Source of the DNA: an uncultured delta proteobacterium
Lineage (GTDB): Bacteria > Myxococcota_A > Polyangia > Polyangiales > Polyangiaceae
Length of the DNA stretch: 64,000 nt
Reading direction: 5' to 3'
Assembly (NCBI GenBank): GCA_963841435.1
Contig: CAWJCS010000004.1
Span: 576,001 to 640,000, forward strand
Shown here: positions 12,455-23,335 of the stretch, one piece after another
Layout: each line of letters starts with the position of its first letter
How positions within the stretch are numbered: position 1 is the first letter of the stretch
The notes under the pieces: generated by a model
Told to the model about the DNA's origin: nothing
Databases searched by the model: none
Seen by the model: only the letters and a program-made list of their open reading frames with translations
Position numbers and translations under genes: made by a program

Positions 12455-13975
12455 ATGCCCGTCATCAAGGTCGGTGAACGCGCCGCACGAGAGGTCTACG
12501 CCACCCTCGCCGGCGCCACCACGGAGCTTTCGCCGATCATCGCGGCAACCCGAGAAGCCGTGGAACGAAGAGAGCCCGTCACGTGGCAACTGCCCGCGAC
12601 GACCGCGACGATTCACAGGCTCGAGGGTGCGTTTCGCCTCGCCACCGAGCTTGGCGCAAGCGTCGAGCTTTACCCGGTCGCTCCTTTGCCTGCACGGGAA
12701 CAAGCGTTCCTGGAGGACTTTGCGACCCACCTGCTCGCGGATTCTCCGGACGCGCCGAGCCCATTCGCTCAGCGCGCCCGCCTTGCAGGCGAGGTCGGCG
12801 AAGAGCTCCTGTATTCCGTCCTGGCCGCCGCGAGCCTGGCGAGGAGCGCTCCCCTGCCGGTCCCCGACAGCATCGAGGAAGTCGTCATCATCGGTGCGTA
12901 CGGGGGCGACCACGTGGGTGACGCCGCCATTCTCGGCGGCGTGCTGCTCGGTTTGCACGAAAAATACGGGGTGAAGGCCGCGCGCATCCTGAGCCACCGG
13001 CCCGAGCACACGCGAAGGCTCGCGGCGGGCCTTCGCACGCCGGTGGCGGTTCGCGTGTTCCACTACGACGTTCCGCGCGGCCGGGCTCAAATGGCCGAGG
13101 CCGACGCGCTCGTCGTCGCTGGCGGCCCGATGATGGACCTACCGAGGGTGCTCGCCAAGCACCTCGTCGTCGCGGCAGCCGCGCGCGCGGCGCACAAGCC
13201 TCTGCTCGTGGAGCGCGTCGGCATCGGTCCCTTCAAGCGCGAGCTCAGCCGGCGCGCAGCGCGGCTCCTGTTGCGGCAAGCGAGCCACGTCTCGACGCGC
13301 ACCAGCAAGGCCGCCGAGGATCCGATTCTGGCGGGCGTGAACGTCTCCGTATCGCGTGATCCGGCGTTCGACTACCTCGCCACCAGGACCCAGCTGGACT
13401 TGGTGACGCCCGCAGAGAAGGCCTCCGTCGACGAGCTGCTCGAGGGTGTCGGAGAACGAACCCTCATCGGGATCAACCTGCGACCGATCCGCCATGAATG
13501 GAGCGTCAAGGGCGAGTCTTATTCGGAGGATGCCGAAGGGCGGCTGATCCAGAGCCTGGCCGTCGCGATGCGCCGGCTTGCGAGCGAGCGCCAGGTGACG
13601 TTCGTTTTCTTCCCGATGAACCCGATCCAGTTCGGTCGGTCCGATCTGGAGTCGGCCTACCGCTTGCGCGGCGCCGTCGGTCCCGAGGTTGACTTTAGGG
13701 TGTGGGAAGCCGATCCCGACGTGGACGGGGTGCTTTACATGCTGCGACGGCTGAAGCTCGCGATCGCCATGCGCTTTCACGCCTGCATCTTCTCACTCTC
13801 GCAGGACCTCCCAGTCGTGGGCGTCGACTACTACCCGGGTCAGGGCGGCAAGGTGGAGCAGCTGTTCAACGACCTCGGTCGTGCCGACGACGTGCGCGTG
13901 ATGGATCAGGTGGACAGCGACTGGCTAGTGAGCCGTATCACGGCGCTGCTCGACAGGGGAAACCGCGCCGGTTGA
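12455..13975 (+). CDS. Polysaccharide pyruvyl transferase family protein with N-terminal extension
   Basis: GAYGGDHVGDAAIL, GGGP-like AGGP, VGIGP, DPAF, AMRFHA..., DY..KV motifs of the CsaB/WcaK family. Confidence 0.88.
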   Translation: MPVIKVGERAAREVYATLAGATTELSPIIAATREAVERREPVTWQLPATTATIHRLEGAFRLATELGASVELYPVAPLPAREQAFLEDFATHLLADSPDAPSPFAQRARLAGEVGEELLYSVLAAASLARSAPLPVPDSIEEVVIIGAYGGDHVGDAAILGGVLLGLHEKYGVKAARILSHRPEHTRRLAAGLRTPVAVRVFHYDVPRGRAQMAEADALVVAGGPMMDLPRVLAKHLVVAAAARAAHKPLLVERVGIGPFKRELSRRAARLLLRQASHVSTRTSKAAEDPILAGVNVSVSRDPAFDYLATRTQLDLVTPAEKASVDELLEGVGERTLIGINLRPIRHEWSVKGESYSEDAEGRLIQSLAVAMRRLASERQVTFVFFPMNPIQFGRSDLESAYRLRGAVGPEVDFRVWEADPDVDGVLYMLRRLKLAIAMRFHACIFSLSQDLPVVGVDYYPGQGGKVEQLFNDLGRADDVRVMDQVDSDWLVSRITALLDRGNRAG

Positions 13976-15479
13976 CCCGCTTCGAGCTGCGCAAGCTGAA
14001 GCTCGTGTGGGACTTTGCCGTCCTGTCGAGCGGCCAGGTCGCGGTCAAGGCACTCGCTTTTTTCGCCTTTGCATTCATGGCGCGCGCGCTGGGCGCCGTG
14101 TCCTACGGCAGGGTCGAGTACGTCATGGCCCTCTCGTCCTTCTTCACCATGCTGGTGGACGGAGGGCTCGGCCCCGTTGGGGTTCGCGCGCTCATGCGCG
14201 ACCCATCCGCTACGCGAACGGTCACCGCAAACGTCGCCGTCGCGCGCATCGGTCTTGCGCTGCTTGCCGTGCCGTTGATGGTGATCGTCGCGCGGCTGTC
14301 GGCACCCGCTGCCCACACGCAGATGCTAGTTTGGCTCTTCGCCCTGGCGCTAGCCGCGCTCCCGTGGCGCCTCGACTGGCTGCTTCAGGCGCGCGAGCGG
14401 ATGGCCCTGGCGTCCATGGCGCAGCTCCTTCGCATGGTCGTCTTCCTCGTGCCGGTGCTCGTGCTCGTGAGGCGCCCCGAAGACATCACCCTGGTCGGCT
14501 GGGCAGAGCTCGCTGCGGCGACCGTGACCGCCCTCTACTACGCCGGGGTGCAGAATTTTTGATCACGCCGATCAGCTTGCGCTTCTCTGCCAGCGGCCTC
14601 GCCGCGCTTCTACGCGAGGGGTTGCCCGTGAGTGGAGCGCAATTGGTCGCCGCGCTGAACCTCTACGCGCCGACCTTCCTGGTCGGCACCCTCGTCGGTG
14701 GGTCGGAAACAGCGTGGTTCGGTGCCTCGCATCGCGTCGTGATCTCGCTTTCGATCTTCGGCGTCATCTACCACTTCAATCTCTACCCGACCCTCACGCG
14801 GCAGCTTGCTGGCGGCGCCCGTCGCGATCTCGAAGCCGTCGTGCGCGCTTCGTACCGAACGGTGGCTTGGGTGAGCATCGGGGGAGCGCTGTTCCTGATG
14901 CTGTTCGCGAAGGTGCTGCTCTCCCTCGCGTTCGGCAACCGATTCGTGGCCGCCGCACCGACTTTCGAGATCTTGGTCTGGTTTCTACCCATCAGCCTGC
15001 TCTCGGGACACGCTCGCTGGTTGCTGGTCGCCGGAGGGCGCCAGGTCTTCGTGCTGCTCGGCCAGCTCACCGGTGCCGTCACCACCGTGCTGCTCGGTGT
15101 TCCACTCATCCAGCGCTACGGGGCGCCGGGTGCAGCGGCGACCATGCTGGGCGCGGCGGTGGCACTCTGGATCGCGACGCATCTTTTCGCCGTTCGAGCG
15201 ATCGGGCCCGTGCCCGGTGTGCGACCCATGGTCGTGCCGGCCGCCCTGGCCGCGCTGATCTGCGTTGCGGTTCAGCGACTGGGGCTAGGTCCGTGGGTCG
15301 GCGCTCCCGCTGGCGCGGCCGTCTTCCTCGGGCTCGCGGTCCTGCTCGATCGTCGCTTGCTACCGGATCTACGCCTGCTCGCGCAGGTCAAATCCGACGT
15401 CGCGCAGTCGTCCAGCCCCGTGCCCGATGACACGAAAGACTTGGCGAAGGCGGAGGGTGTGCCGCCTTCGGCGTCCTGA
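13972..15479 (+). CDS. wzx: Wzx-type oligosaccharide flippase (MOP superfamily); frameshifted at the T5 run 14556-14560 as assembled
   Basis: Multi-TM with ARALG..YG, DGGL, DWLLQARERM; second half (ASHRVV, YPTL, FGNRFVAAAPTFEIL) is in another frame; one extra T gives QNFLITP in a single ORF. Confidence 0.82.
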
Positions 15480-15508
15480 CGGAAGTCGCGGCGGCGACGC
15501 CACGCTGG

Positions 15509-16348
15509 TCATGCGCCGGGCTCCAGCGCGCCTGCCACGGCGAGCCGCCGGCGTGCCCTGCGGGTCAGCACCAGGAGCAACACCGACGCAAGAGCGGCAA
15601 GAAGCAACGAAGCCCGGAGCCACGGCGAGCGCTGCGGGCCGGGCGCGGCCCGAGGCGGCTCCGCACCTTCGCCGCCGAACGAGCTCGGGGCGGGCGAAAC
15701 GGCCGCGGGCGTCGTTCCCCCTTCGCCGAACGAGAACTGCCCGAGTGCCAGGTCATCGCCGAAGGGATCGGTGAGAGTGGTGGTGGCGGTCGAGTTGGCG
15801 CCGTTCCCGTCGACGACCGCAACGTAGAGCCCGACGTGGCCGGTGCTGGCGGCAGGTGCGGTCCAATCGAAGGACCATTCGATCTCGTTGGGGGTGCGGC
15901 CAGCGGACGCCAGGATTGCGGTTCCGCGCGCGTAATACTCGCTGGCGGCGTAGCCCGAGAACGAACCCGCAGCGCGACGCCCTGGATCGAGGGCCGTAAG
16001 AACGATGGAGTTGTAGTTCGAGAGCGGCGACGCGAGGCCTCGCGACTCGTTGAGCAGCTTGAACGTCAGCCGGTACGACTGCCCGGGAAGGTAGCGCCGC
16101 TCGGCCATCAGCTCGGGTGGATCGGATGCCACGCTGACGCGCGCCAGGAGCGGGGCTTCGATGTGGCAGGCAGCGCACGTCCAACCGTGCTCGCGTGGCG
16201 AGCCCGTGTAGAAAAGTCCTCCGCCTCCGCCCCCGCCGGGCTGCGTGTCGAACAGGTTGCCCGCATGGAACGCCAGCGCAGGGCCCGCCACGAGCAGGAC
16301 CGTTGCCGCAGCGGCGGCGGCTACAAGTCGCTTCCCGGCTCCACGCAT
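15509..16348 (-). CDS. Secreted Reeler-like protein with CxxCH heme-attachment motif and C-terminal TM + Arg-rich anchor (module gene B2)
   Basis: RBS GGAGG, signal peptide ..PALA/F, CAACH, WSFDWTAP, VDGNG, GDD; hydrophobic tail then RRARRR. Confidence 0.78.
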   Translation of the reverse strand: MRGAGKRLVAAAAAATVLLVAGPALAFHAGNLFDTQPGGGGGGGLFYTGSPREHGWTCAACHIEAPLLARVSVASDPPELMAERRYLPGQSYRLTFKLLNESRGLASPLSNYNSIVLTALDPGRRAAGSFSGYAASEYYARGTAILASAGRTPNEIEWSFDWTAPAASTGHVGLYVAVVDGNGANSTATTTLTDPFGDDLALGQFSFGEGGTTPAAVSPAPSSFGGEGAEPPRAAPGPQRSPWLRASLLLAALASVLLLVLTRRARRRLAVAGALEPGA

Positions 16349-16815
16349 GTCGGATCCTCCGTCTGCCCACTGGCCCATGCCACGAGTGTCTTGTAGTCGG
16401 CGTCGCTCGGCGAAGTGAAGACGTCCCCCTTGCCGAATTTGGTGGCGCCGCCGTGGTAGTAGCCACCGGCGACCTGATCGAGCGGCTTCATGAGGAGGAA
16501 GCTGGTGCCGGGATCACGCGCATCGAGGAAGGCACGCGCCGAAGCGAAGTTGAACGCTCGTTCTTCGTCGCGCAAAAAGGCGTTGCGGGTTGCTTCAGTT
16601 CCTCCGAGCCTGAGGCGGTTGCGGGCGTAGACACGGAAGTACCGCTGCGGATCACCGTGGCAGAGAAGCGCCGAACAGCTCTTGGTGAGCACGGGTTGGA
16701 CCCGGCAACGAAAGTAGGCCTCGTCGGCGCGTGCTTCGGTCCCCGTGCCCCCCAGGTCTGCGACGCAGCCCGCCACGAGGGCGACAACCATCAAGTGCGG
16801 CAACGGGCGTCTCAC
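16321..16815 (-). CDS. Lipoprotein, putative monoheme c-type cytochrome with CX4CH motif (module gene A2)
   Basis: Lipobox VAGC; F..RVQPVL..SCSALLCHG; LLMKPL....HGG; terminal LVAW helix. Confidence 0.75.
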   Translation of the reverse strand: MRRPLPHLMVVALVAGCVADLGGTGTEARADEAYFRCRVQPVLTKSCSALLCHGDPQRYFRVYARNRLRLGGTEATRNAFLRDEERAFNFASARAFLDARDPGTSFLLMKPLDQVAGGYYHGGATKFGKGDVFTSPSDADYKTLVAWASGQTEDPTCVEPGSDL

Positions 16816-17939
16816 AGGGAGCCTCCCAAGCCCAGCTCTGCCGTGAAGCCGCGTCGCTCCGGCAGTCGGGAAAAATCTTGGAACATGAACCAGAAGCCCG
16901 TGAGCTTGAGCTCGGCGGCGAGCTCGGAGAAAAAACCGACGGGCTGTGAGCGGTAGGTGAGGCGTAGACCCGCGAAGGCATCCCAGAAAGTCGAGAGCTC
17001 TCGATCGGCCGTCATGTAGTGCTTTCGAGCAGCATATCCGTCTTCGTAGAAGCGCGCTCCCGCTTGGTAGTAGCCGCGTACGAACAACGCAGGCTCGAAG
17101 CCGCCCAGGCCGAGCGCGTATTCGGTGCCAATCGTTCCGGCAACTACCCCCCAGTTGTCAACATAAGCGCGCGCGTGCGAGCGCAGCGCGCTGTCCTGGA
17201 AGAGGTGCCGATTGTAGGCGAGGACGAGCGCGTGCCGAAGGCGATGCGTCGGAACGACCTCCGGTGCGGACACGGTCCCCCCCGCGTTCGCCTCGTGGTA
17301 CCGCACGAAGCGATAAGGGCTTGCCTGGTAGCCGGATAGGTACGTCAACGCGTAGGTCAGTGACCAGATGTCGTTCCGGCTCGCCACCGCGACGAGGCTC
17401 GCGTTGCCGCCGTAATCTTGCTGCCTCTCGGAGAAGTTCGCGTCATGGGCGCGGCCGATGTCGTTTAGCGTGAGGTTGAGACCGAGGCCAAGGGTCAGGT
17501 TGTGGTCCAAGAGGTCGACGCTCCCCGCGAGGGCGAACGTGTGGGACCACCAGTCGTTCTCGGCCGAGCGCCGGTATGAAGCCGATACGGTGTGAATTCC
17601 GTCGCTGTAGCTCGGCGTGACGCCGGCCTCTTTGCGCACCTCGTTCCATCGCCCCGTGGCAGCGGACACGACATCAACCGAGGCGGAGGAAACGATGTCG
17701 AGCAGGAAATGCGCGCGCAGCCGGGCGCGCTCGAAGGCCCCGGCGTCGATGGCAGCGACGGTCGTCACCACCCGCGTCGCGTCGTCGTCTTGGTACACTC
17801 CGCCGCGCGCCGTGACCTCGAGCGGCGGCCCCTCGGCCCTGGCGTGCGGCAACGTCAGCAGCGCGCCGACCACCACCCCGAGGGCGATGGCTCGGATCAG
17901 GCCCGTGCGAGGCCGGCTTGCGACGCGCGATCCCGCCAA
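16812..17939 (-). CDS. DUF3570 family outer-membrane beta-barrel protein
   Basis: Signal peptide, DIVSSASVDVVSAAT, SxEND, GYQASPYR, DxWG, TADRELS motifs; directly follows DUF4266. Start may be TTG 17939 or an overlapping CTG at 17960. Confidence 0.8.
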   Translation of the reverse strand: MAGSRVASRPRTGLIRAIALGVVVGALLTLPHARAEGPPLEVTARGGVYQDDDATRVVTTVAAIDAGAFERARLRAHFLLDIVSSASVDVVSAATGRWNEVRKEAGVTPSYSDGIHTVSASYRRSAENDWWSHTFALAGSVDLLDHNLTLGLGLNLTLNDIGRAHDANFSERQQDYGGNASLVAVASRNDIWSLTYALTYLSGYQASPYRFVRYHEANAGGTVSAPEVVPTHRLRHALVLAYNRHLFQDSALRSHARAYVDNWGVVAGTIGTEYALGLGGFEPALFVRGYYQAGARFYEDGYAARKHYMTADRELSTFWDAFAGLRLTYRSQPVGFFSELAAELKLTGFWFMFQDFSRLPERRGFTAELGLGGSL

Positions 17940-17950
17940 GCTGGGTGGCC

Positions 17951-18163
17951 TCAGTTGCAGCCGCAGCCGCCGCCCAACGTGCCGTAGCCGCCCGACGCGC
18001 CCTCGCGATACTCGTAGACGTGCTGCTCGAGCGCCGTGGCTTCTGGGTCCTGGCCGAGCTGCATCTTGGGCTTGGCGAGGTGACCGCGCTGGTAGGGTTG
18101 GACGTGCGCGCAGCTCGCGCAAGAAAATGCAATCAAGCAGGCGAGCCAAGGGAGCTGGTGCAC
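17951..18163 (-). CDS. DUF4266 family small lipoprotein
   Basis: GTG start, lipobox CASC, VQPYQRGHLA, REGASGG and diagnostic C-terminal GGGCGCN. Confidence 0.85.
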   Translation of the reverse strand: MHQLPWLACLIAFSCASCAHVQPYQRGHLAKPKMQLGQDPEATALEQHVYEYREGASGGYGTLGGGCGCN

Positions 18164-18165
18164 GC

Positions 18166-18864
18166 TCAGCTGCCCTCTACCAGCACCAGCTTCCCTTCGG
18201 TGACGTCGTCGCCGAGCGACGACTCGCCGCCGCTGTTGCCGTCCACCATGCCGTAGTAGACGGTCACCTCTCCCGTGCCCGCAGCCGGTGCCACCCAGTC
18301 GAAGGTCCACGACGTGAGGTCCATGGCTTCCGTTGGCAGGACACCGTGGCAATCACCATAGACGTAGGTGGTGCGGAGGGTCGTGTCGGATTTCGGTGGC
18401 GCTGAAGTCGGGCACACCATGGAGTCAACGCCGGAATCGGTGAAATACTCCCCGGCGCGCATGCCCGAGGTGTCCTCGATCACCATCGCCATGGCGTTGT
18501 GGTTCTCGTTGTTGATGAGGTGCTCGCCCATCATTTGAACCGTGAACGTGTAGCGCTCGCCAGGCAGGTAGCCGTCCTCACCGCCCACATCGATCCAAGA
18601 CGGGCTCACGTCAACGAGGGCCTGGATCCCGCCTTGCTGCTTCGAGTCGTCGATGTGGCAATGCGAGCACTTGATGCCCCAGTCTTCGACGGCGCCCGTG
18701 CCGTAGATGCCGCCGGCCCCCGCACGAAGCGCGTTCGACGAGTTGTTGCCGTCAGCCGGGTCGTGCCAGCTCTTCAGAAAGGGAAATGCCCACACGGTTG
18801 CCGTGACGGTCAAGGCCGCGAGCCCTGCGAGCGAGAACCGAAGCCAAAGTCAACTGCGCGTCAT
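18166..18864 (-). CDS. Secreted Reeler-like protein with CxxCH motif (module gene B1); in-frame TGA at codon 5 as assembled
   Basis: GAGG-ATG at 18864, signal peptide, CSHCH, WTFDWVAP, VDGN, GDD; paralog of 15509-16348. Confidence 0.75.
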
Positions 18865-18870
18865 CGTACC

Positions 18871-19848
18871 TCAGTTGTTGGTGCTGCAGCTCGCGAGCGT
18901 CTCGCCCATGAGCCAGCGCCGGAGCTTGTCGTGTTCTGCGTCGTTGTTCCGGAACAGGTGAATGCCGGCGTGCGCCTTCCCGCCCACGATTGGCTGAGCA
19001 ATCAGATCGGATTCGTCCGGGCCGCCCACGGGGGTCCCCGTCGAGTCCAGAGCGAAGCCGCGGGCGCTGTCGTAGTTTCGGCGCCATTCCGTCGGGGTGT
19101 GAGGCTCGAAGTAGCAGCGGCACTCGATGGAGCCGATGCAACTTTCCGTTGGACCGCTCTGGCCCTGCTTGAGGCAGCTGTTGTTGGAGTCCGTGAGCAT
19201 CTCGCCCGTGATGCGCAGGCGACCTCGCGCGTAGATGCGCAGGGCCCGGCCCGCTTCCGTGCCGTGGCAGCCCATCATGGAGCACTTGCGATCCATGATG
19301 GGCTCGACGTTGCAGCGATAGAAGTTTTCGTCGAGCGCGGGCAGGGTCACCTGCGTGATGGGCTCGTTCACGGTCGTGCCGCAGCCGTTCTTGTCGGTGC
19401 AGCTGCGGGTGCCGTCGTCGCTGGAGCCGTTCGTCTGCCAGGGCGTGCATTCCCAGGCCTCGACGCAGCCGCTCGATCCCGCGCTGCCGCCGGTCGCACC
19501 GCCGCTGCCGCCCGTGGACGACCCGCCCGTGGACGACCCGCCCGTGGACGACCCGCCCGTGGACGACCCGCCCGTGGATGACCCGCCCGTGGACGCGCCG
19601 CCCATGCCGTTCCCGTCGCCCGCGTCGCCCACGAGACCCGAGCCGCCGTTGCTCGTTCCGCTGGACCCGCCGCTGGCGGATCCCTTGCCGCCCGAGCCGC
19701 TGCCGCCGCTCGCGGAAGCACCGCCCGTGGCAGCGCTGGGACAGATGCCGGCGGCACAGTCCGTGTTCGGCGCCTTGTCCTGGTTAGAGCCACACGCCCA
19801 GGCAAGCCCGAGCACACCCAAAGCAACAGCAGTCGGAAGTAACTTCAC
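18871..19848 (-). CDS. Lipoprotein with Gly/Ser/Thr linker, small Cys/Trp module and CX4CH putative cytochrome domain (module gene A1)
   Basis: Lipobox AWAC; GGSST repeats; YRCNVEPIMDRKCSMMGCHG, YARGRLR, NYDSARGF, HAG, LRRW; paralog of 16321-16815. Confidence 0.78.
   Translation of the reverse strand: MKLLPTAVALGVLGLAWACGSNQDKAPNTDCAAGICPSAATGGASASGGSGSGGKGSASGGSSGTSNGGSGLVGDAGDGNGMGGASTGGSSTGGSSTGGSSTGGSSTGGSSTGGSGGATGGSAGSSGCVEAWECTPWQTNGSSDDGTRSCTDKNGCGTTVNEPITQVTLPALDENFYRCNVEPIMDRKCSMMGCHGTEAGRALRIYARGRLRITGEMLTDSNNSCLKQGQSGPTESCIGSIECRCYFEPHTPTEWRRNYDSARGFALDSTGTPVGGPDESDLIAQPIVGGKAHAGIHLFRNNDAEHDKLRRWLMGETLASCSTNN
19511..19595. repeat. 15-bp coding tandem repeat (CCCGTGGACGACCCG) x5 plus a partial unit, encoding GGSST
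   Basis: Nearly perfect direct repeats seen in the sequence. Confidence 0.92.
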
Positions 19849-19918
19849 GCTAAGCCCTCAAGGGTGCCGCACCTTAGCCAACGTCGTCGGGCTCGTCACG
19901 CCCATTGACGCGAATCGG

Positions 19919-21841
19919 ATGTCGGTGGAAACGAACCTTGCCGTGAATCACACAAGGCTCAGGAGGATCCGCGCCGCGATCATCCTTGCCGTGCTGCTTG
20001 CTCCGGCCGTGCACTATCTCGCACTCGGCACAGAGGTGCCCGAGGGCACGTTCTTCCTCCTCAGTCGGCTGGACGGCTCCGTTGCCGCGCAGGATCCGGC
20101 AAATTTGGCGTATTCCCTGGCCCGGCCGCCGGTCTTCTCCCTCATGGAGTGGACGTTCTGGTTTCCGCTCGCGTACATCGCCGTCGGCTACGCCGCGCAC
20201 GCGTTGCTCCAGCTCGTCATGGTTTGGCTGGTGTGGCTCGGGGCTGGTGAAGGCGAAACGCTCGACCCCGAAGCGCGGCTGCTCTCTGCGGCGGCGCTGG
20301 CCCTCGTGGCGTTCCCGGTGCTCCACCTCCTGCGCCTCGACGATCGCGGCATGTCCCTCGTGCCTCATGACGCGTGGGAGGTGTTTTCCCACAGGACGCT
20401 TTTCTGGTGCCTCTCGGCGGTCGCAACCGGCGCGCTTGCGCTCGGCAAGACGCGCGTGGCGGTGTGGGTCACTGCCCTCAGCTGCTACATGCACCCGACC
20501 GCGGGCGTGTTGAGCTTCGTCGTGGTGGGGTCGATCGTGGTGGTCCAGGCGCTCCAGGCGCGCCGGTGGGTCATGCTGCTCGAGGTCGGTGGGGCATTTT
20601 TGGTCGGGCTTGCGCCGGCCCTGGTGAAACAGCTCGAGCGACTTCCAGCGGTGTTGAGCCGGCCCGTCTCCTCCGGAGCCTGGTATTCCGCGATGATCAA
20701 GGACGAAGCGGACGACTTTTCGTTCTTGTATCAGCTTCTCTACCGGCTTCCGCTCTGCGCGACGATAGGCGCGGTGATCCTGATCGCGCTCGTCGCCTAC
20801 GCGCTCCTGGTGCCCAAGTTTCACCGACGCCCGATGTTCTGGGCGGCGCTCCTACCCCCCGTTCTCTTCGCGCTCGGTGCGGTGGTCGAGCGCACGCTCG
20901 TCGTGGCCTACCCGACGCCACTCACGTTGCCGCTCGTGGCGCTCACGCCCGGCTACCGGTTGCCGAGCTACTCGTGCTTTCCGCTGTTGGTTCTCGCGGG
21001 CGGTGTCGTCGCGCGATTCTCCAACGTGGCGCGTGCGCGCTTTGGGACCCGCCTGCCGGTCTTCGAGGGCGCACGGCGTCTGATGATCGCCGCGGCCGTC
21101 GTCGCTCTCGGGTGGGGCCTGTTTCTCGTCAGCTCGCGCGGGCACGCTCGGCCCGCGCTCCGTTTCGCCCGCTGGGCCATCTCGGCGGGCAAGCTCGACG
21201 GGATCGAGCCTTACCTCGTTGCGGCGCAAGCGGCCGGGATGAACGATTTCAAGACCCCAGCGATCTTCACCCACGAGGGGCCCTACGTCCTTTACCCCGG
21301 GGAGCGCAATCTCGCCGTGATTCAACGCCTCGACGCGGGCCAACCGCCGGGCGAGCGAGACCGAGCAGCACTCGCGAGTGTGACCGCGGAAAGCTTCGCC
21401 GAGATCGTGCGGATGATCCGAGCGCGGGTCAAACCCGGAGACGGCCTGTTTGTGCCGCCGTACCTCTATTATTTCCGCGATGCATTGATCAACTACCCGA
21501 TCGTCCTCCAGGAGCACCACGACGGCAACGTGATGATGGGCGGGCCCGGCCTGTTCGGCTTCTTCGGCCCGCGCATGGTCAACGTGATGGGGTTCGACTA
21601 CGAGGGCATGCCGAGCCAGCACTCGCACCGCAACTTCAGTGCGATGCGCGAGGCGTTCCTGAGTATCGATGGCAAAAAGGCTCGCTCGCTCTTCGCCCGG
21701 TACCCCGCCTACCCGTACTTCGTGACCGAAGCACGACACTCGCTGCCGTTTCGCGCCGTCGCGAGGAACGGCGCTTTCGTCGTGTACGACCTCGCGGCGC
21801 CGCTCGAAGCCAGCGCGGGTGCGAGCGCGCCTCGGCGGTAG
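19919..21841 (+). CDS. Polytopic membrane protein with C-terminal soluble domain, putative GT-C-like glycan transferase/polymerase
   Basis: More than 10 hydrophobic segments, xHPxxG motif (YMHPTAG), C-terminal YFVT...RNGAFVVY typical of GT-C-associated domains; glycan-locus context. Confidence 0.55.
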   Translation: MSVETNLAVNHTRLRRIRAAIILAVLLAPAVHYLALGTEVPEGTFFLLSRLDGSVAAQDPANLAYSLARPPVFSLMEWTFWFPLAYIAVGYAAHALLQLVMVWLVWLGAGEGETLDPEARLLSAAALALVAFPVLHLLRLDDRGMSLVPHDAWEVFSHRTLFWCLSAVATGALALGKTRVAVWVTALSCYMHPTAGVLSFVVVGSIVVVQALQARRWVMLLEVGGAFLVGLAPALVKQLERLPAVLSRPVSSGAWYSAMIKDEADDFSFLYQLLYRLPLCATIGAVILIALVAYALLVPKFHRRPMFWAALLPPVLFALGAVVERTLVVAYPTPLTLPLVALTPGYRLPSYSCFPLLVLAGGVVARFSNVARARFGTRLPVFEGARRLMIAAAVVALGWGLFLVSSRGHARPALRFARWAISAGKLDGIEPYLVAAQAAGMNDFKTPAIFTHEGPYVLYPGERNLAVIQRLDAGQPPGERDRAALASVTAESFAEIVRMIRARVKPGDGLFVPPYLYYFRDALINYPIVLQEHHDGNVMMGGPGLFGFFGPRMVNVMGFDYEGMPSQHSHRNFSAMREAFLSIDGKKARSLFARYPAYPYFVTEARHSLPFRAVARNGAFVVYDLAAPLEASAGASAPRR

Positions 21842-21878: not shown

Positions 21879-23189
21879 TCAGCTCGCCGAACTGCCGGCC
21901 GGCTCGGTGGCGGGCGCGGCGGAGGCAGCGCTCGCGGCACCGAGGACGATGCGATCGCCATCGACGTGCACGGGGTAGGTCTTGAGCTGCTTGAGGGCCT
22001 GGCAGGGGCTCGATCCCGACTGCATGTCGTAGGGGAGGTTATGCCACGGGCAGCGAATGCGCTGTCCCTCCACGTAGCCGAGGGACATATCGGCACCCTC
22101 GTGCGTGCAGCGGCGGCCGAAGGCGACCAGCGAACCGTCGGCAAGCCGTGCCACGCAGGTCGCCGTGTCAACGGCTCGGATCTCGCCGGGGCGAAGCGAG
22201 CTCGCGGAAAGGGGATCCTGCGCGGTCGGTGCGACGGGCGCCACGTCGGCGCTCGACGTGGTGCGGGCGCCGATGGCGCGGCGCACCAGAGTGCGCGCTT
22301 GACGCAGGCGAGTGCGAAAGTGCGTCACCGCGAGGCTCGCCGGGATCTCGCTGACGAAGCTCAGCGGGCCCGTGGCGAGCGGGCCGACGGCGAGCGGCGA
22401 ATACGCGTACATCTGCAAGTGGGTGTCGGCGAAACGCGGGCGGTCGAGCGTCAGCCGGAAGCTGACGACGTGCCGCGTCGAGTCGGTGTGGTTGACGACG
22501 GAAGCGTGGAGCTGGTCGCCGTGAAAGACCAGCGCGTCGCCTGGCTCCATGGCGACGTTCGTGGGCACGCCGGGACGCTGATCCGAGCGGATGTGGCAAC
22601 CGTTGCGCACGATGGGCGCCTCGTAGCTCTCGGGGTAGATGAGCAATCCGTTGCCGGTATCGACTCGGCCGAGCGCGACCCAGATGTTCACCGAGTTCAG
22701 CGGGCAGTCGAGCCAGCTGTCGCGATGGGGCCCGTGCGCGGTGATCTTGCCGTCGCCCCGCTTCTTACCGAATTCCTTGTAGGCTTGCTTGTGCGCCGCC
22801 GCTGCGTCGAAGGGGATGTGGAAGCGGATGTTCGGGAAGCGCTCGAAGTAGAAGGGCGCGTCGCTGCCGAAGATGCGAGGCACGGCGCGCCGCAGCAACG
22901 AGGGTGCCATGCGCAGTGCCTCCACGTAGACGGCTTCCGTCAGAGCGGGGATCGAATTGCCAGGCACGATCTCGTGCAGGCGTTCGAAACCGAGCTCGCG
23001 AACCCGCGCCGCAATTTCCGGTCCGAGCGCCTTGTCGATGCCGCGCAGACTGCCTTCGACCATGTCGTCGAAGACCCCTGTCCGCTGCATGGCGCCGCGT
23101 ATCACGAAATATTCGCCTGCGAGCACGCGGCTCCGAAGGTTCTCGCCCGGTCCTGGAAGGTCTTTGAGCTCGACTAGTGAGGCCGTCAT
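21879..23189 (-). CDS. Phytanoyl-CoA-dioxygenase-like 2OG-Fe(II) oxygenase fused to a C-terminal Rieske [2Fe-2S] domain
   Basis: HxD (PHRDSW), NIWVAL, PGDALVF..LHAS, RHVVSFR; Rieske CTHEG...CPWH. Confidence 0.88.
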   Translation of the reverse strand: MTASLVELKDLPGPGENLRSRVLAGEYFVIRGAMQRTGVFDDMVEGSLRGIDKALGPEIAARVRELGFERLHEIVPGNSIPALTEAVYVEALRMAPSLLRRAVPRIFGSDAPFYFERFPNIRFHIPFDAAAAHKQAYKEFGKKRGDGKITAHGPHRDSWLDCPLNSVNIWVALGRVDTGNGLLIYPESYEAPIVRNGCHIRSDQRPGVPTNVAMEPGDALVFHGDQLHASVVNHTDSTRHVVSFRLTLDRPRFADTHLQMYAYSPLAVGPLATGPLSFVSEIPASLAVTHFRTRLRQARTLVRRAIGARTTSSADVAPVAPTAQDPLSASSLRPGEIRAVDTATCVARLADGSLVAFGRRCTHEGADMSLGYVEGQRIRCPWHNLPYDMQSGSSPCQALKQLKTYPVHVDGDRIVLGAASAASAAPATEPAGSSAS

Positions 23190-23335
23190 GGAGTTTGCAA
23201 AGTGGGTGTCCCGAGCCAGGTTGCGAAAGGTACCCGGTGGCCGCGCTCGCGGCAATCGACCACCGATGACTTCGCGCTCGGTTGCGCGGCCCCACGAGGG
23301 ACCGCTCTACTCGGGCTGGAAAAACCGGTGCCGGG

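Follow-up and report, generated by a model that had tools for sequence, protein, structure and literature searches.

A window of 64,000 nucleotides (C4:576001-640000), taken from the 7.78-Mb, 6-contig genome of an uncultured delta proteobacterium of the Polyangiaceae (completeness 95%; window GC 0.65-0.73), carries at positions 15509-19848 a minus-strand operon in which genes for a DUF4266 lipoprotein and a putative DUF3570 outer-membrane barrel lie between two pairs of genes, here called A1-B1 and A2-B2, whose products each contain one motif of the heme-attachment type. The association of these genes and their Cys and His motifs are conserved in related myxobacteria, some of which keep ApbE or redoxin genes in the same cluster. 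We think it quite possible, at a little under an even chance, that the locus is a cytochrome-bearing, lineage-specific variant of the flavinylated DUF4266/DUF3570 envelope redox system, with the A and B cytochromes exchanging electrons with it.

Gene content of the DUF3570 locus

Six co-directional minus-strand genes were identified from the open reading frame (ORF) list and its translations, in the order given by the original prediction. A1 (18871-19848) encodes a 325-aa lipoprotein in which a Gly/Ser-rich linker precedes a C-terminal A domain with the motif CSMMGCH, a second invariant His and extra Cys pairs. B1 (open frame 18166-18849, with an expected ATG at 18864) encodes a choice-of-anchor V / Reeler-like protein with CSHCH. 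The DUF4266 gene (17951-18163, GTG start at 18163) encodes a small lipoprotein ending in GCGCN, that is, with a C-terminal CXC, and the DUF3570 gene (16812-17939) encodes the putative outer-membrane barrel with the motifs DIVSSAS and VDVVSAAT; its start was placed at TTG 17939, ahead of a good signal peptide, and the stop-to-stop frame extends to 18149. A2 (16321-16815) encodes a 164-aa lipoprotein with CSALLCH and the invariant His121, and B2 (15509-16348) encodes a second choice-of-anchor V / Reeler-like protein, with CAACH, a C-terminal hydrophobic helix and an Arg-rich tail. All four heme-type motifs read exactly as first quoted. The operon holds two pairs of paralogues, A1 with A2 (30% identity, E 2e-14) and B1 with B2 (28% identity, E 5e-18), and the Cys/His motifs align within each pair.

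The DUF4266 protein matches Pfam family PF14086 (E 4.7e-24, 85.5 bits against a cut-off of 27) and the DUF3570 protein matches PF12094 (E 5.2e-22, 78.6 bits against a cut-off of 25; 65 bits in the genome-wide profile search), which agrees with the assignment of both in the original prediction. Both B1 (43.9 bits) and B2 (52.7 bits) pass the cut-off of 42 for the NCBIfam choice-of-anchor V model NF041895. The profile scans therefore recovered three of the families proposed at the outset, DUF3570, DUF4266 and choice-of-anchor V, and not the Pfam Reeler family or any cytochrome family for A1 and A2. The junctions are tight, as had been described: the A1 stop lies 6 nt from ATG 18864, gaps of 2 nt and 11 nt separate B1 from DUF4266 and DUF4266 from DUF3570, and overlaps of 4 nt and 28 nt join DUF3570 to A2 and A2 to B2.

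Conservation in related myxobacteria

A pattern scan with one genome per species gave 18 related loci, whose gene content was determined by tblastn (L018 and L019, both included in the 18, are near-identical and should count as one). The taxa named for them are Polyangiaceae, Polyangium, Polyangia, Polyangiales, Sandaracinaceae, Byssovorax, Nannocystaceae and Myxococcales, with one locus labelled "Pseudomonadota bacterium" and one "Deltaproteobacteria bacterium." DUF3570 directly adjoins A2 and B2 in 18/18 loci, co-directionally in 17 and divergently in L024. DUF4266 was found in 17 of the 18, L010 being interrupted by a contig end, and A1 and B1 are additionally present in 14. The window's order, A1-B1-DUF4266-DUF3570-A2-B2, is shared by L016, L017, L023 and L025, and ten related loci have the order DUF4266-DUF3570-A2-B2-A1-B1. 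The co-occurrence of A and B genes with DUF3570/DUF4266, on which the original prediction depended, is thus observed in every related locus. The 28-nt overlap between A2 and B2 also recurs, in at least L011, L013, L014, L015, L021 and L026, and because it is found in the window and at least six other loci it suggests that translation of the two genes is coupled.

Loss of the motifs in homologs would have spoken against heme attachment, and all A copies examined and 33/34 B copies were found to keep them. Among the 18 loci and the window, CX4CH is kept in 16/16 A1-type and 19/19 A2-type copies, and a GG..H motif in 16/16 A1-type copies; CxxCH is kept in 19/19 B2-type and 14/15 B1-type frames, the exception being a partial frame in L013 that lacks the N-terminus. 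The C-terminal CXC of DUF4266 is kept in 17/17 copies. In a broader search, 134 proteins among 250 candidates were related to A2 at E<=0.001; the 120 of them that are listed share 50-72% identity with it, are unnamed or "hypothetical" and derive from myxobacterial metagenome-assembled genomes and metagenomes. The 40 commonest spellings of CX4CH cover 117/120 of these proteins, and a Cys 14 residues ahead of the CH is kept in 120/120.

Coexistence with ApbE and redoxin genes

The wider distribution of these genes was measured in 151 genomes drawn evenly from the phylum, which are mutually related, so that the counts do not represent independent events. Matches to the A-domain profile are present in 36/151 genomes and DUF3570 in 49/151, with both in 30; in 25/151 an A match lies within 5 kb of DUF3570. 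The same proximity holds for 35/82 DUF3570 rows, a count that leaves out 16 weaker second-fragment rows. None of the ten genomes whose DUF3570 scores highest (E<1e-50) has an A match.

Twelve loci from this sample were analysed by Pfam and tblastn. Three with high-scoring DUF3570 are canonical: DsbD-redoxin-DUF4266-DUF3570 (L035), redoxin-DUF3570 (L036) and redoxin-DUF3570-ApbE (L037). Others combine the two kinds of partner. L045 and L046 read A-B-Cys-rich protein-DUF4266-DUF3570-ApbE, L042 has the same order with a redoxin at the end, and L043 reads ApbE/redoxin fusion-A-B-Cys-rich protein with a MYXO-CTERM-like end-DUF4266-DUF3570. In L038, a di-haem oxidoreductase (DHOR) gene is followed by genes for a protein of 974 aa that contains A domains and matches HZS_alpha, a small A protein, DUF3570 and ApbE. 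In L044, a protein with 11 MopE-type (Cu-binding_MopE) metal-binding motifs and a C-terminal A domain is followed by B, DUF4266 and DUF3570. Complete replacement of the flavin system by the A and B genes was considered and rejected, as L042, L043, L045 and L046 hold A-B together with ApbE and/or a TlpA-like redoxin. Because relatives with ApbE or redoxin in the same cluster keep A-B-DUF4266-DUF3570, A and B appear, on gene content, to be accessories of the flavin system and not substitutes for it.

The protein encoded between B and DUF4266 in L042, L043, L045 and L046 is a conserved Cys-rich secreted protein that starts ...TSCDI.TG.SC...GCDCDHDGY... and continues through a Pro/Asp/Thr-rich linker to a MYXO-CTERM-like end; in L045 and L046 masked stretches (runs of X) lie within its gene. 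This Cys-rich protein is absent from the window and from the flanks of the 18 double-module loci. The window's clade appears to have gained its second A-B pair by duplication, and ApbE, the redoxin and the Cys-rich protein to have disappeared from its clusters.

The A proteins as candidate CX4CH cytochromes

In an alignment of the A2 family (31 sequences), C17 (the lipobox Cys), C37, C47, C52, H53, H121 and C157 are invariant, and among A1 and A2 types together (30 sequences) P41, C47, C52, H53, R58, R69, E85, G118, H121, W147, G150 and C157 are invariant. We read A as a bis-His c-type heme protein because CX4CH is accompanied by a second invariant His, and the invariant residues fit a predicted bis-His heme site together with a C37-C157 disulfide. 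The A-domain family is large (1513 cluster representatives at E<=0.001), and its more distant members show CxxCH or CX5CH where A1 and A2 have CX4CH. Of the Atlas clusters with a Pfam label, the nearest contain PSCyt1, one (score 0.92) in 16% of its members and one (score 0.90) in 50%, there together with CTI.

Proteins above the Pfam PSCyt1 cut-off with CX4CH or CX6CH instead of CxxCH were also observed (L080, L081, L086, L087 and L034), so that expanded Cys spacing appears to be common among putative PSCyt1-type cytochromes of the phylum. A separate occurrence of A-like domains in the genome is a 1020-aa lipoprotein at C3:966113-969172 on the minus strand (L008 5111-8173), which has three of them (CX9CH, CX4CH, CX4CH) together with a propeller-like central part and CAGCH at the C-terminus, and is not linked to DUF3570. 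Proteins of about 1000 aa of the same kind, with HZS_alpha / PD40 matches, adjoin DUF3570 in L038, L039 and L040.

The genome encodes two CcmE proteins and three PF01578 proteins, and ResB was not found in it. This set is a System I maturation machinery, and System I tolerates CX4CH. The Ccm system that was to be sought elsewhere in the genome is therefore present, and the locus and genome together show the sequence features of c-type cytochromes, namely CXnCH motifs, Sec signal peptides or lipoboxes, and a maturation system.

The B proteins and the cytochrome f sandwich

The structure of B2 was modelled with AlphaFold2 from 51 sequences (pLDDT 85.9). Foldseek matched the model to the F-spondin Reeler domain (E 4e-7) and to cytochrome f (E 1.4e-4). 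A second structural comparison gave 11.4, 2.9 and 126 for a Reeler domain, 9.0-10.3 and 138-143 for 16 cytochrome f entries, and up to 8.1 for the next unrelated sandwiches. The B2 model thus shows both the Reeler beta-sandwich fold and a sandwich of the cytochrome f large-domain type with an N-terminal CxxCH. The cytochrome f alignment starts at residue 1 of the chain and residue 42 of the B2 model, and CxxCH lies at 58-62; in the model, therefore, the B motif falls where the N-terminal heme-binding segment of cytochrome f aligns. C58, C61 and H62 are invariant in the 51 B sequences. At the sequence level, neither B1 nor B2 matches Pfam Reeler (PF02014) or cytochrome f at E<=1, and a PDB profile search with B reached the F-spondin reeler at no better than E 0.05.

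Cytochrome f starts with an aromatic residue whose amino group ligates the heme, and the title of one Foldseek match, entry 1ctm, mentions "unexpected heme ligation." All B copies whose N-termini were read likewise have an aromatic residue directly behind the predicted small-x-small cleavage site: F/Y in 19/19 B2-type copies, followed by His in 18/19, and F/W in 14/14 B1-type copies. An automatic pattern count gave 19/19 for B2 and 13/14 for B1, the miss being the window's own V-W-A|F site. The parallel in the aromatic mature N-terminus is suggestive. However, about 15 residues more separate this N-terminus from CxxCH in B than in cytochrome f, and the model has low confidence in that stretch.

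The two B proteins differ at their C-termini. B1 has no C-terminal anchor. Many B2 orthologues end in a MYXO-CTERM-like succession of Cys, hydrophobic helix and Arg-rich tail, and one source cluster is so named; in the window, the B2 tail has the helix and RRARRR without the Cys that several orthologues have, and so does not qualify as MYXO-CTERM. Passages of a preprint on C-terminal signals (10.1101/2023.06.07.544157) treat the MYXO-CTERM tail as a sorting signal and mention DUF4266/DUF3570/TlpA neighbourhoods for another such signal. Two further choice-of-anchor V proteins with an N-terminal CxxCH are encoded at C5:317324-318994 and C4:193182-195788; both have long Asp-rich, Cys-rich repeats, Gly-rich linkers and a MYXO-CTERM-like end of Cys, helix and Arg-rich tail.

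Possible flavinylation of DUF3570

According to the passages on these families in Meheust et al. (2021, eLife, PMC8238504), DUF3570 is a proven ApbE substrate of unknown function that is flavinylated at two [S/T]GA[S/T] motifs. They also describe a conserved CXC at the C-terminus of DUF4266 and name ApbE and a thioredoxin-like protein, often joined by DsbD, as the usual partners of the two. The same source links some DUF3570 clusters to iron transport and finds the variability of the gene clusters consistent with redundancy between flavinylation and cytochromes.

The window contains neither ApbE nor a thioredoxin-like protein, as was noted at the outset, and the search for apbE elsewhere in the genome found a single gene, at C3:914034-914885, with a lipoprotein-type N-terminus and unrelated neighbours. 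There are three DUF3570 genes in the genome, and neither FMN_bind nor NQR/RNF-type genes were matched (0 matches each at 95% completeness). Because an orphan ApbE implies a substrate and FMN_bind, NQR and RNF are lacking here, the DUF3570 proteins are its likely substrates, following the logic of PMC8238504. By this analogy we infer that the window's DUF3570 would still be flavinylated by the genome's single, unlinked ApbE.

The two other DUF3570 paralogues differ in their motifs. One, at C6:1823301-1825183, has TSAS and STAS and is directly followed by a redoxin-like stretch, giving a more canonical DUF3570-thioredoxin pair; the other, at C6:1715907-1717415, has SGAT and SSAT.

Genes and features around the operon

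Plus-strand genes flank the operon: a polysaccharide flippase-like gene ends at 15479, and a 628-aa protein without a family match is encoded from about 19955. The flippase-type gene (13702-15479, plus strand) is apparently divided between two frames, through either a frameshift or a fault in the assembly; the match to the first part of Polysacc_synt lies at 13702-14562, and the hydrophobic continuation at 14007-15479 has no family match. A scan of 15200-20200 for promoters and terminators gave nothing useful. The A1 linker (about 19400-19750) is a long Gly/Ser/Thr stretch with tandem GGSST units between the lipobox and a Cys-containing pre-domain, and opposite to it runs a long spurious ORF (19355-21841). 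A protein of 458 aa encoded at 21879-23255 (minus strand) has a dioxygenase region of the PhyH type and, at its C-terminus, a Rieske [2Fe-2S] domain.

Discussion

The proposed working of the system is as follows. DUF3570 would be an exported, probably outer-membrane beta-barrel flavinylated by the unlinked lipoprotein-type ApbE, and DUF4266 would be a small lipoprotein with a redox-capable C-terminal CXC. The two A proteins would be lipoproteins with one bis-His c-type heme each, and the two B proteins would be Reeler/cytochrome f-like sandwiches with one CxxCH just ahead, B2 being tethered by its C-terminal helix. Electrons might pass from the periplasmic pool to the A hemes, on to the flavins and the CXC of DUF3570-DUF4266, and then to the B hemes, on or close to the cell surface, or they might flow the opposite way. 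The system would reduce or oxidize a substrate outside the cell or in its envelope. A metal is our first guess, as the most likely one, because of the iron-transport link (PMC8238504) and the MopE-type proteins in relatives. The original prediction of a barrel working with four monoheme cytochromes as a surface redox complex draws support from synteny, the motifs, the Reeler/cytochrome f fold and Ccm, whereas its outer-membrane conduit, surface exposure and heme, like flavin attachment, localization, electron direction and substrate in the present scheme, are what we infer from these observations. A more specific form of the proposal, which we regard as unlikely, is that B is a bacterial cytochrome with a Reeler/cytochrome f sandwich, possibly ligated N-terminally, that forms together with A, flavinylated DUF3570 and DUF4266 a flavo-cytochrome path across the myxobacterial outer membrane, unlike the multiheme porin-cytochrome build.

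Several observations weigh against a cytochrome-bearing flavin system at this locus. ApbE, redoxin and DsbD genes were found neither in the window nor in the fetched flanks of the 18 double-module loci. At the positions where canonical DUF3570 proteins (L035-L037) align with ...MSGAS... and ...MSGAT, the window's protein has SSAS (in DIVSSAS) and SAAT (in VDVVSAAT), neither of which fits the strict [S/T]GA[S/T] pattern. The Gly is lost throughout the A/B-associated clade, ApbE-bearing clusters included, and the acceptor Ser/Thr and the preceding Ala are kept; where ApbE adjoins A/B-type loci, the DUF3570 motifs read D[IV]M[ST]CAS and VDV[VI][ST]AA[TS]. Outer-membrane barrel proteins usually end in Phe, as do most relatives of this DUF3570, and the window's copy ends in Leu.

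The heme assignments meet further difficulties. A1 and A2 have no Pfam or NCBIfam match at E<=1 and hence no cytochrome family. A Pfam scan of the 31 A2-family members gave weak, motif-driven matches (GSu_C4xC__C2xCH in 4/31, PccH in 1/31), hhalign aligned the A profile with PSCyt1 over 16 columns around the motif at a probability of 22.9%, and a weak predicted model of A2 matched no solved structure. In the 51 B sequences no other His or Met is invariant, so that B has no invariant distal ligand. In the wider choice-of-anchor V family, CxxCH is present in 14/21 members, six have CX1, CX4 or CX5 ahead of the CH, and one is incomplete; CX1CH is not known to be a heme c site. Such a spread of Cys spacing is unusual for heme c and keeps a metal-site reading of the motifs alive.

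The window's B1 gene has an early in-frame stop. From ATG 18864 the frame runs for four codons to an in-frame TGA at 18852-18850, reading MTRS*LWLRF..., and the only in-frame start listed for B1, TTG 18813, would truncate the signal peptide. The earlier description of 18166-18864 as an open frame is accordingly incorrect, and the statement that all six genes have export signals holds for five of them, and can hold for B1 only through an error in the sequence at the TGA or through its readthrough. Beyond the TGA, the frame still codes for the hydrophobic core and cleavage site of a signal peptide, and 13/13 B1 orthologues with printed N-termini have a clean ATG and signal peptide with no such stop. 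The TGA may reflect faulty sequencing, may have arisen recently as a nonsense mutation, or may act as a leaky stop.

The spread of Cys spacing leads to the alternative that A and B handle metal. The CXnCH motifs would then be a disulfide loop or Cys pair with a metal-binding His, the task of A and B at the cell envelope would be to bind or chaperone copper or some other metal, and DUF3570, DUF4266 and ApbE would supply reducing power, e.g., for Cu(II) or Fe(III) reduction. Spacing varies among CX1, CX2, CX4 and CX5 in choice-of-anchor V proteins and among CX2, CX4, CX5 and CX9 in A-like domains; a Cys-rich protein stands between B and DUF4266 in L042, L043, L045 and L046; 11 Cu-binding_MopE motifs are fused to an A domain in L044; the genome's two other choice-of-anchor V proteins also have Cys-rich repeats; and some DUF3570 clusters are tied to iron transport in the passages of PMC8238504. 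Against these points, spacing is fixed within the A1/A2 and B1/B2 lineages and the His after the second Cys is invariant, which is the signature of heme c, and PSCyt1 matches above the cut-off show CX4CH or CX6CH, so that varied spacing alone is no bar to a cytochrome-type family. On balance, we consider metal handling rather unlikely.

The absence of redoxin and DsbD genes near the double-module loci, as if the second A-B pair had taken over their role, raises another alternative, in which c-type cytochromes facing the periplasm replace DsbD/TlpA as the entry of electrons into the DUF3570/DUF4266 module and serve thiol repair or the repair of oxidative damage in envelope proteins rather than electron transfer to the outside. 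Canonical clusters of the same phylum read DsbD-redoxin-DUF4266-DUF3570(-ApbE) (L035-L037), B1 has no C-terminal anchor, and the variability of the gene clusters has been called consistent with redundancy between flavinylation and cytochromes (PMC8238504), all of which would suit such a role. Two observations make it improbable in our view. L042 and L043 keep redoxin/ApbE alongside A-B, which indicates addition and not replacement, and tails of the MYXO-CTERM type, treated as a sorting signal in 10.1101/2023.06.07.544157, stand at the C-termini of B2 and many B2 orthologues. That B is a Reeler adhesion module and A an unrelated lipoprotein, with Cys and His serving folding alone and the link to DUF3570 reflecting shared export or anchoring rather than redox chemistry, would agree with what is described for eukaryotic CYBDOM proteins (PMC10691727, in part), where Reeler is an adhesion module whose function is unknown, with choice-of-anchor domains being typical of surface proteins and with the polysaccharide biosynthesis genes next to the operon, but is very improbable given the invariant His after the second Cys in both families, the invariant second His in A, and the specific association of the genes with DUF3570, a family proven to consist of flavoproteins, to which relatives add ApbE, redoxins and a di-haem oxidoreductase.

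Loci of this type provide DUF3570 with defined and conserved partners and thus offer a testable hypothesis on the electron exchange of the flavin barrel. Two sizeable families are flagged as candidate cytochromes, the A domain, for which there is no Pfam or NCBIfam model, and the DUF3570-linked branch of choice-of-anchor V. Should B bind heme, the Reeler fold would gain a bacterial redox role, and a relative of cytochrome f would be found outside photosynthetic complexes. Ferric reductase-like proteins of animals combine Reeler with DOMON and cytochrome b561, and its role there is described as unknown in the part of PMC10691727 that treats them. Myxobacteria would, if the proposal is true, have an unstudied extracytosolic capacity for redox reactions or metal handling.

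Comparison with known systems

The A proteins resemble PSCyt1 (PF07635) and the heme domain of fatty-acid cis/trans isomerase in their start, V-x-P-[IVL]-x4-C-Xn-C-H-G, and differ from PSCyt1 in having GG..H.G in place of MPP; A1 and A2 have no PSCyt1 match. The B proteins are low-scoring, divergent members of choice-of-anchor V (44-53 bits against 85-128 bits in typical members), and typical members do not stand beside DUF3570. Unlike cytochrome f, B lacks the small domain, as judged from the secondary structure of the model, and has no membrane-complex partners. A literature text search found no paper in which "Reeler domain" and "cytochrome f" occur together, and among the "choice-of-anchor" matches listed no title concerned the present topic.

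In the porin-cytochrome conduits, such as MtrCAB and Pcc, multiheme cytochromes are threaded through a barrel. The present locus is similar in that a gene of the barrel type adjoins those of exported proteins with heme motifs, at least one of which has a signal of the surface-anchor type. It differs in that A1, A2, B1 and B2 have a single motif each and so are not multiheme proteins, and in that the putative barrel itself would carry flavins.

The closest known relatives are the DsbD/TlpA-ApbE-DUF4266-DUF3570 clusters, as far as they are described in the passages of Meheust et al. (2021). The locus shares with them adjacent, co-directional DUF4266 and DUF3570 genes, the CXC of DUF4266 and two Ser/Thr-x-Ala-Ser/Thr motifs at the published DUF3570 positions. 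Furthermore, the genome has an ApbE with no other recognisable substrate, and relatives of the locus have ApbE and redoxin in the cluster. The differences are that ApbE, a thioredoxin-like protein and DsbD are missing from the window and its 18 closest loci, that the Gly of both motifs is replaced, and that two pairs of CXnCH proteins flank the DUF4266/DUF3570 core. Those passages make no mention of A/B-type partners, which the supplementary cluster tables of the paper may list. The DUF4266 and DUF3570 core with the genome's ApbE is thus a described system of unsolved function, to which the A/B pairs are the added part.

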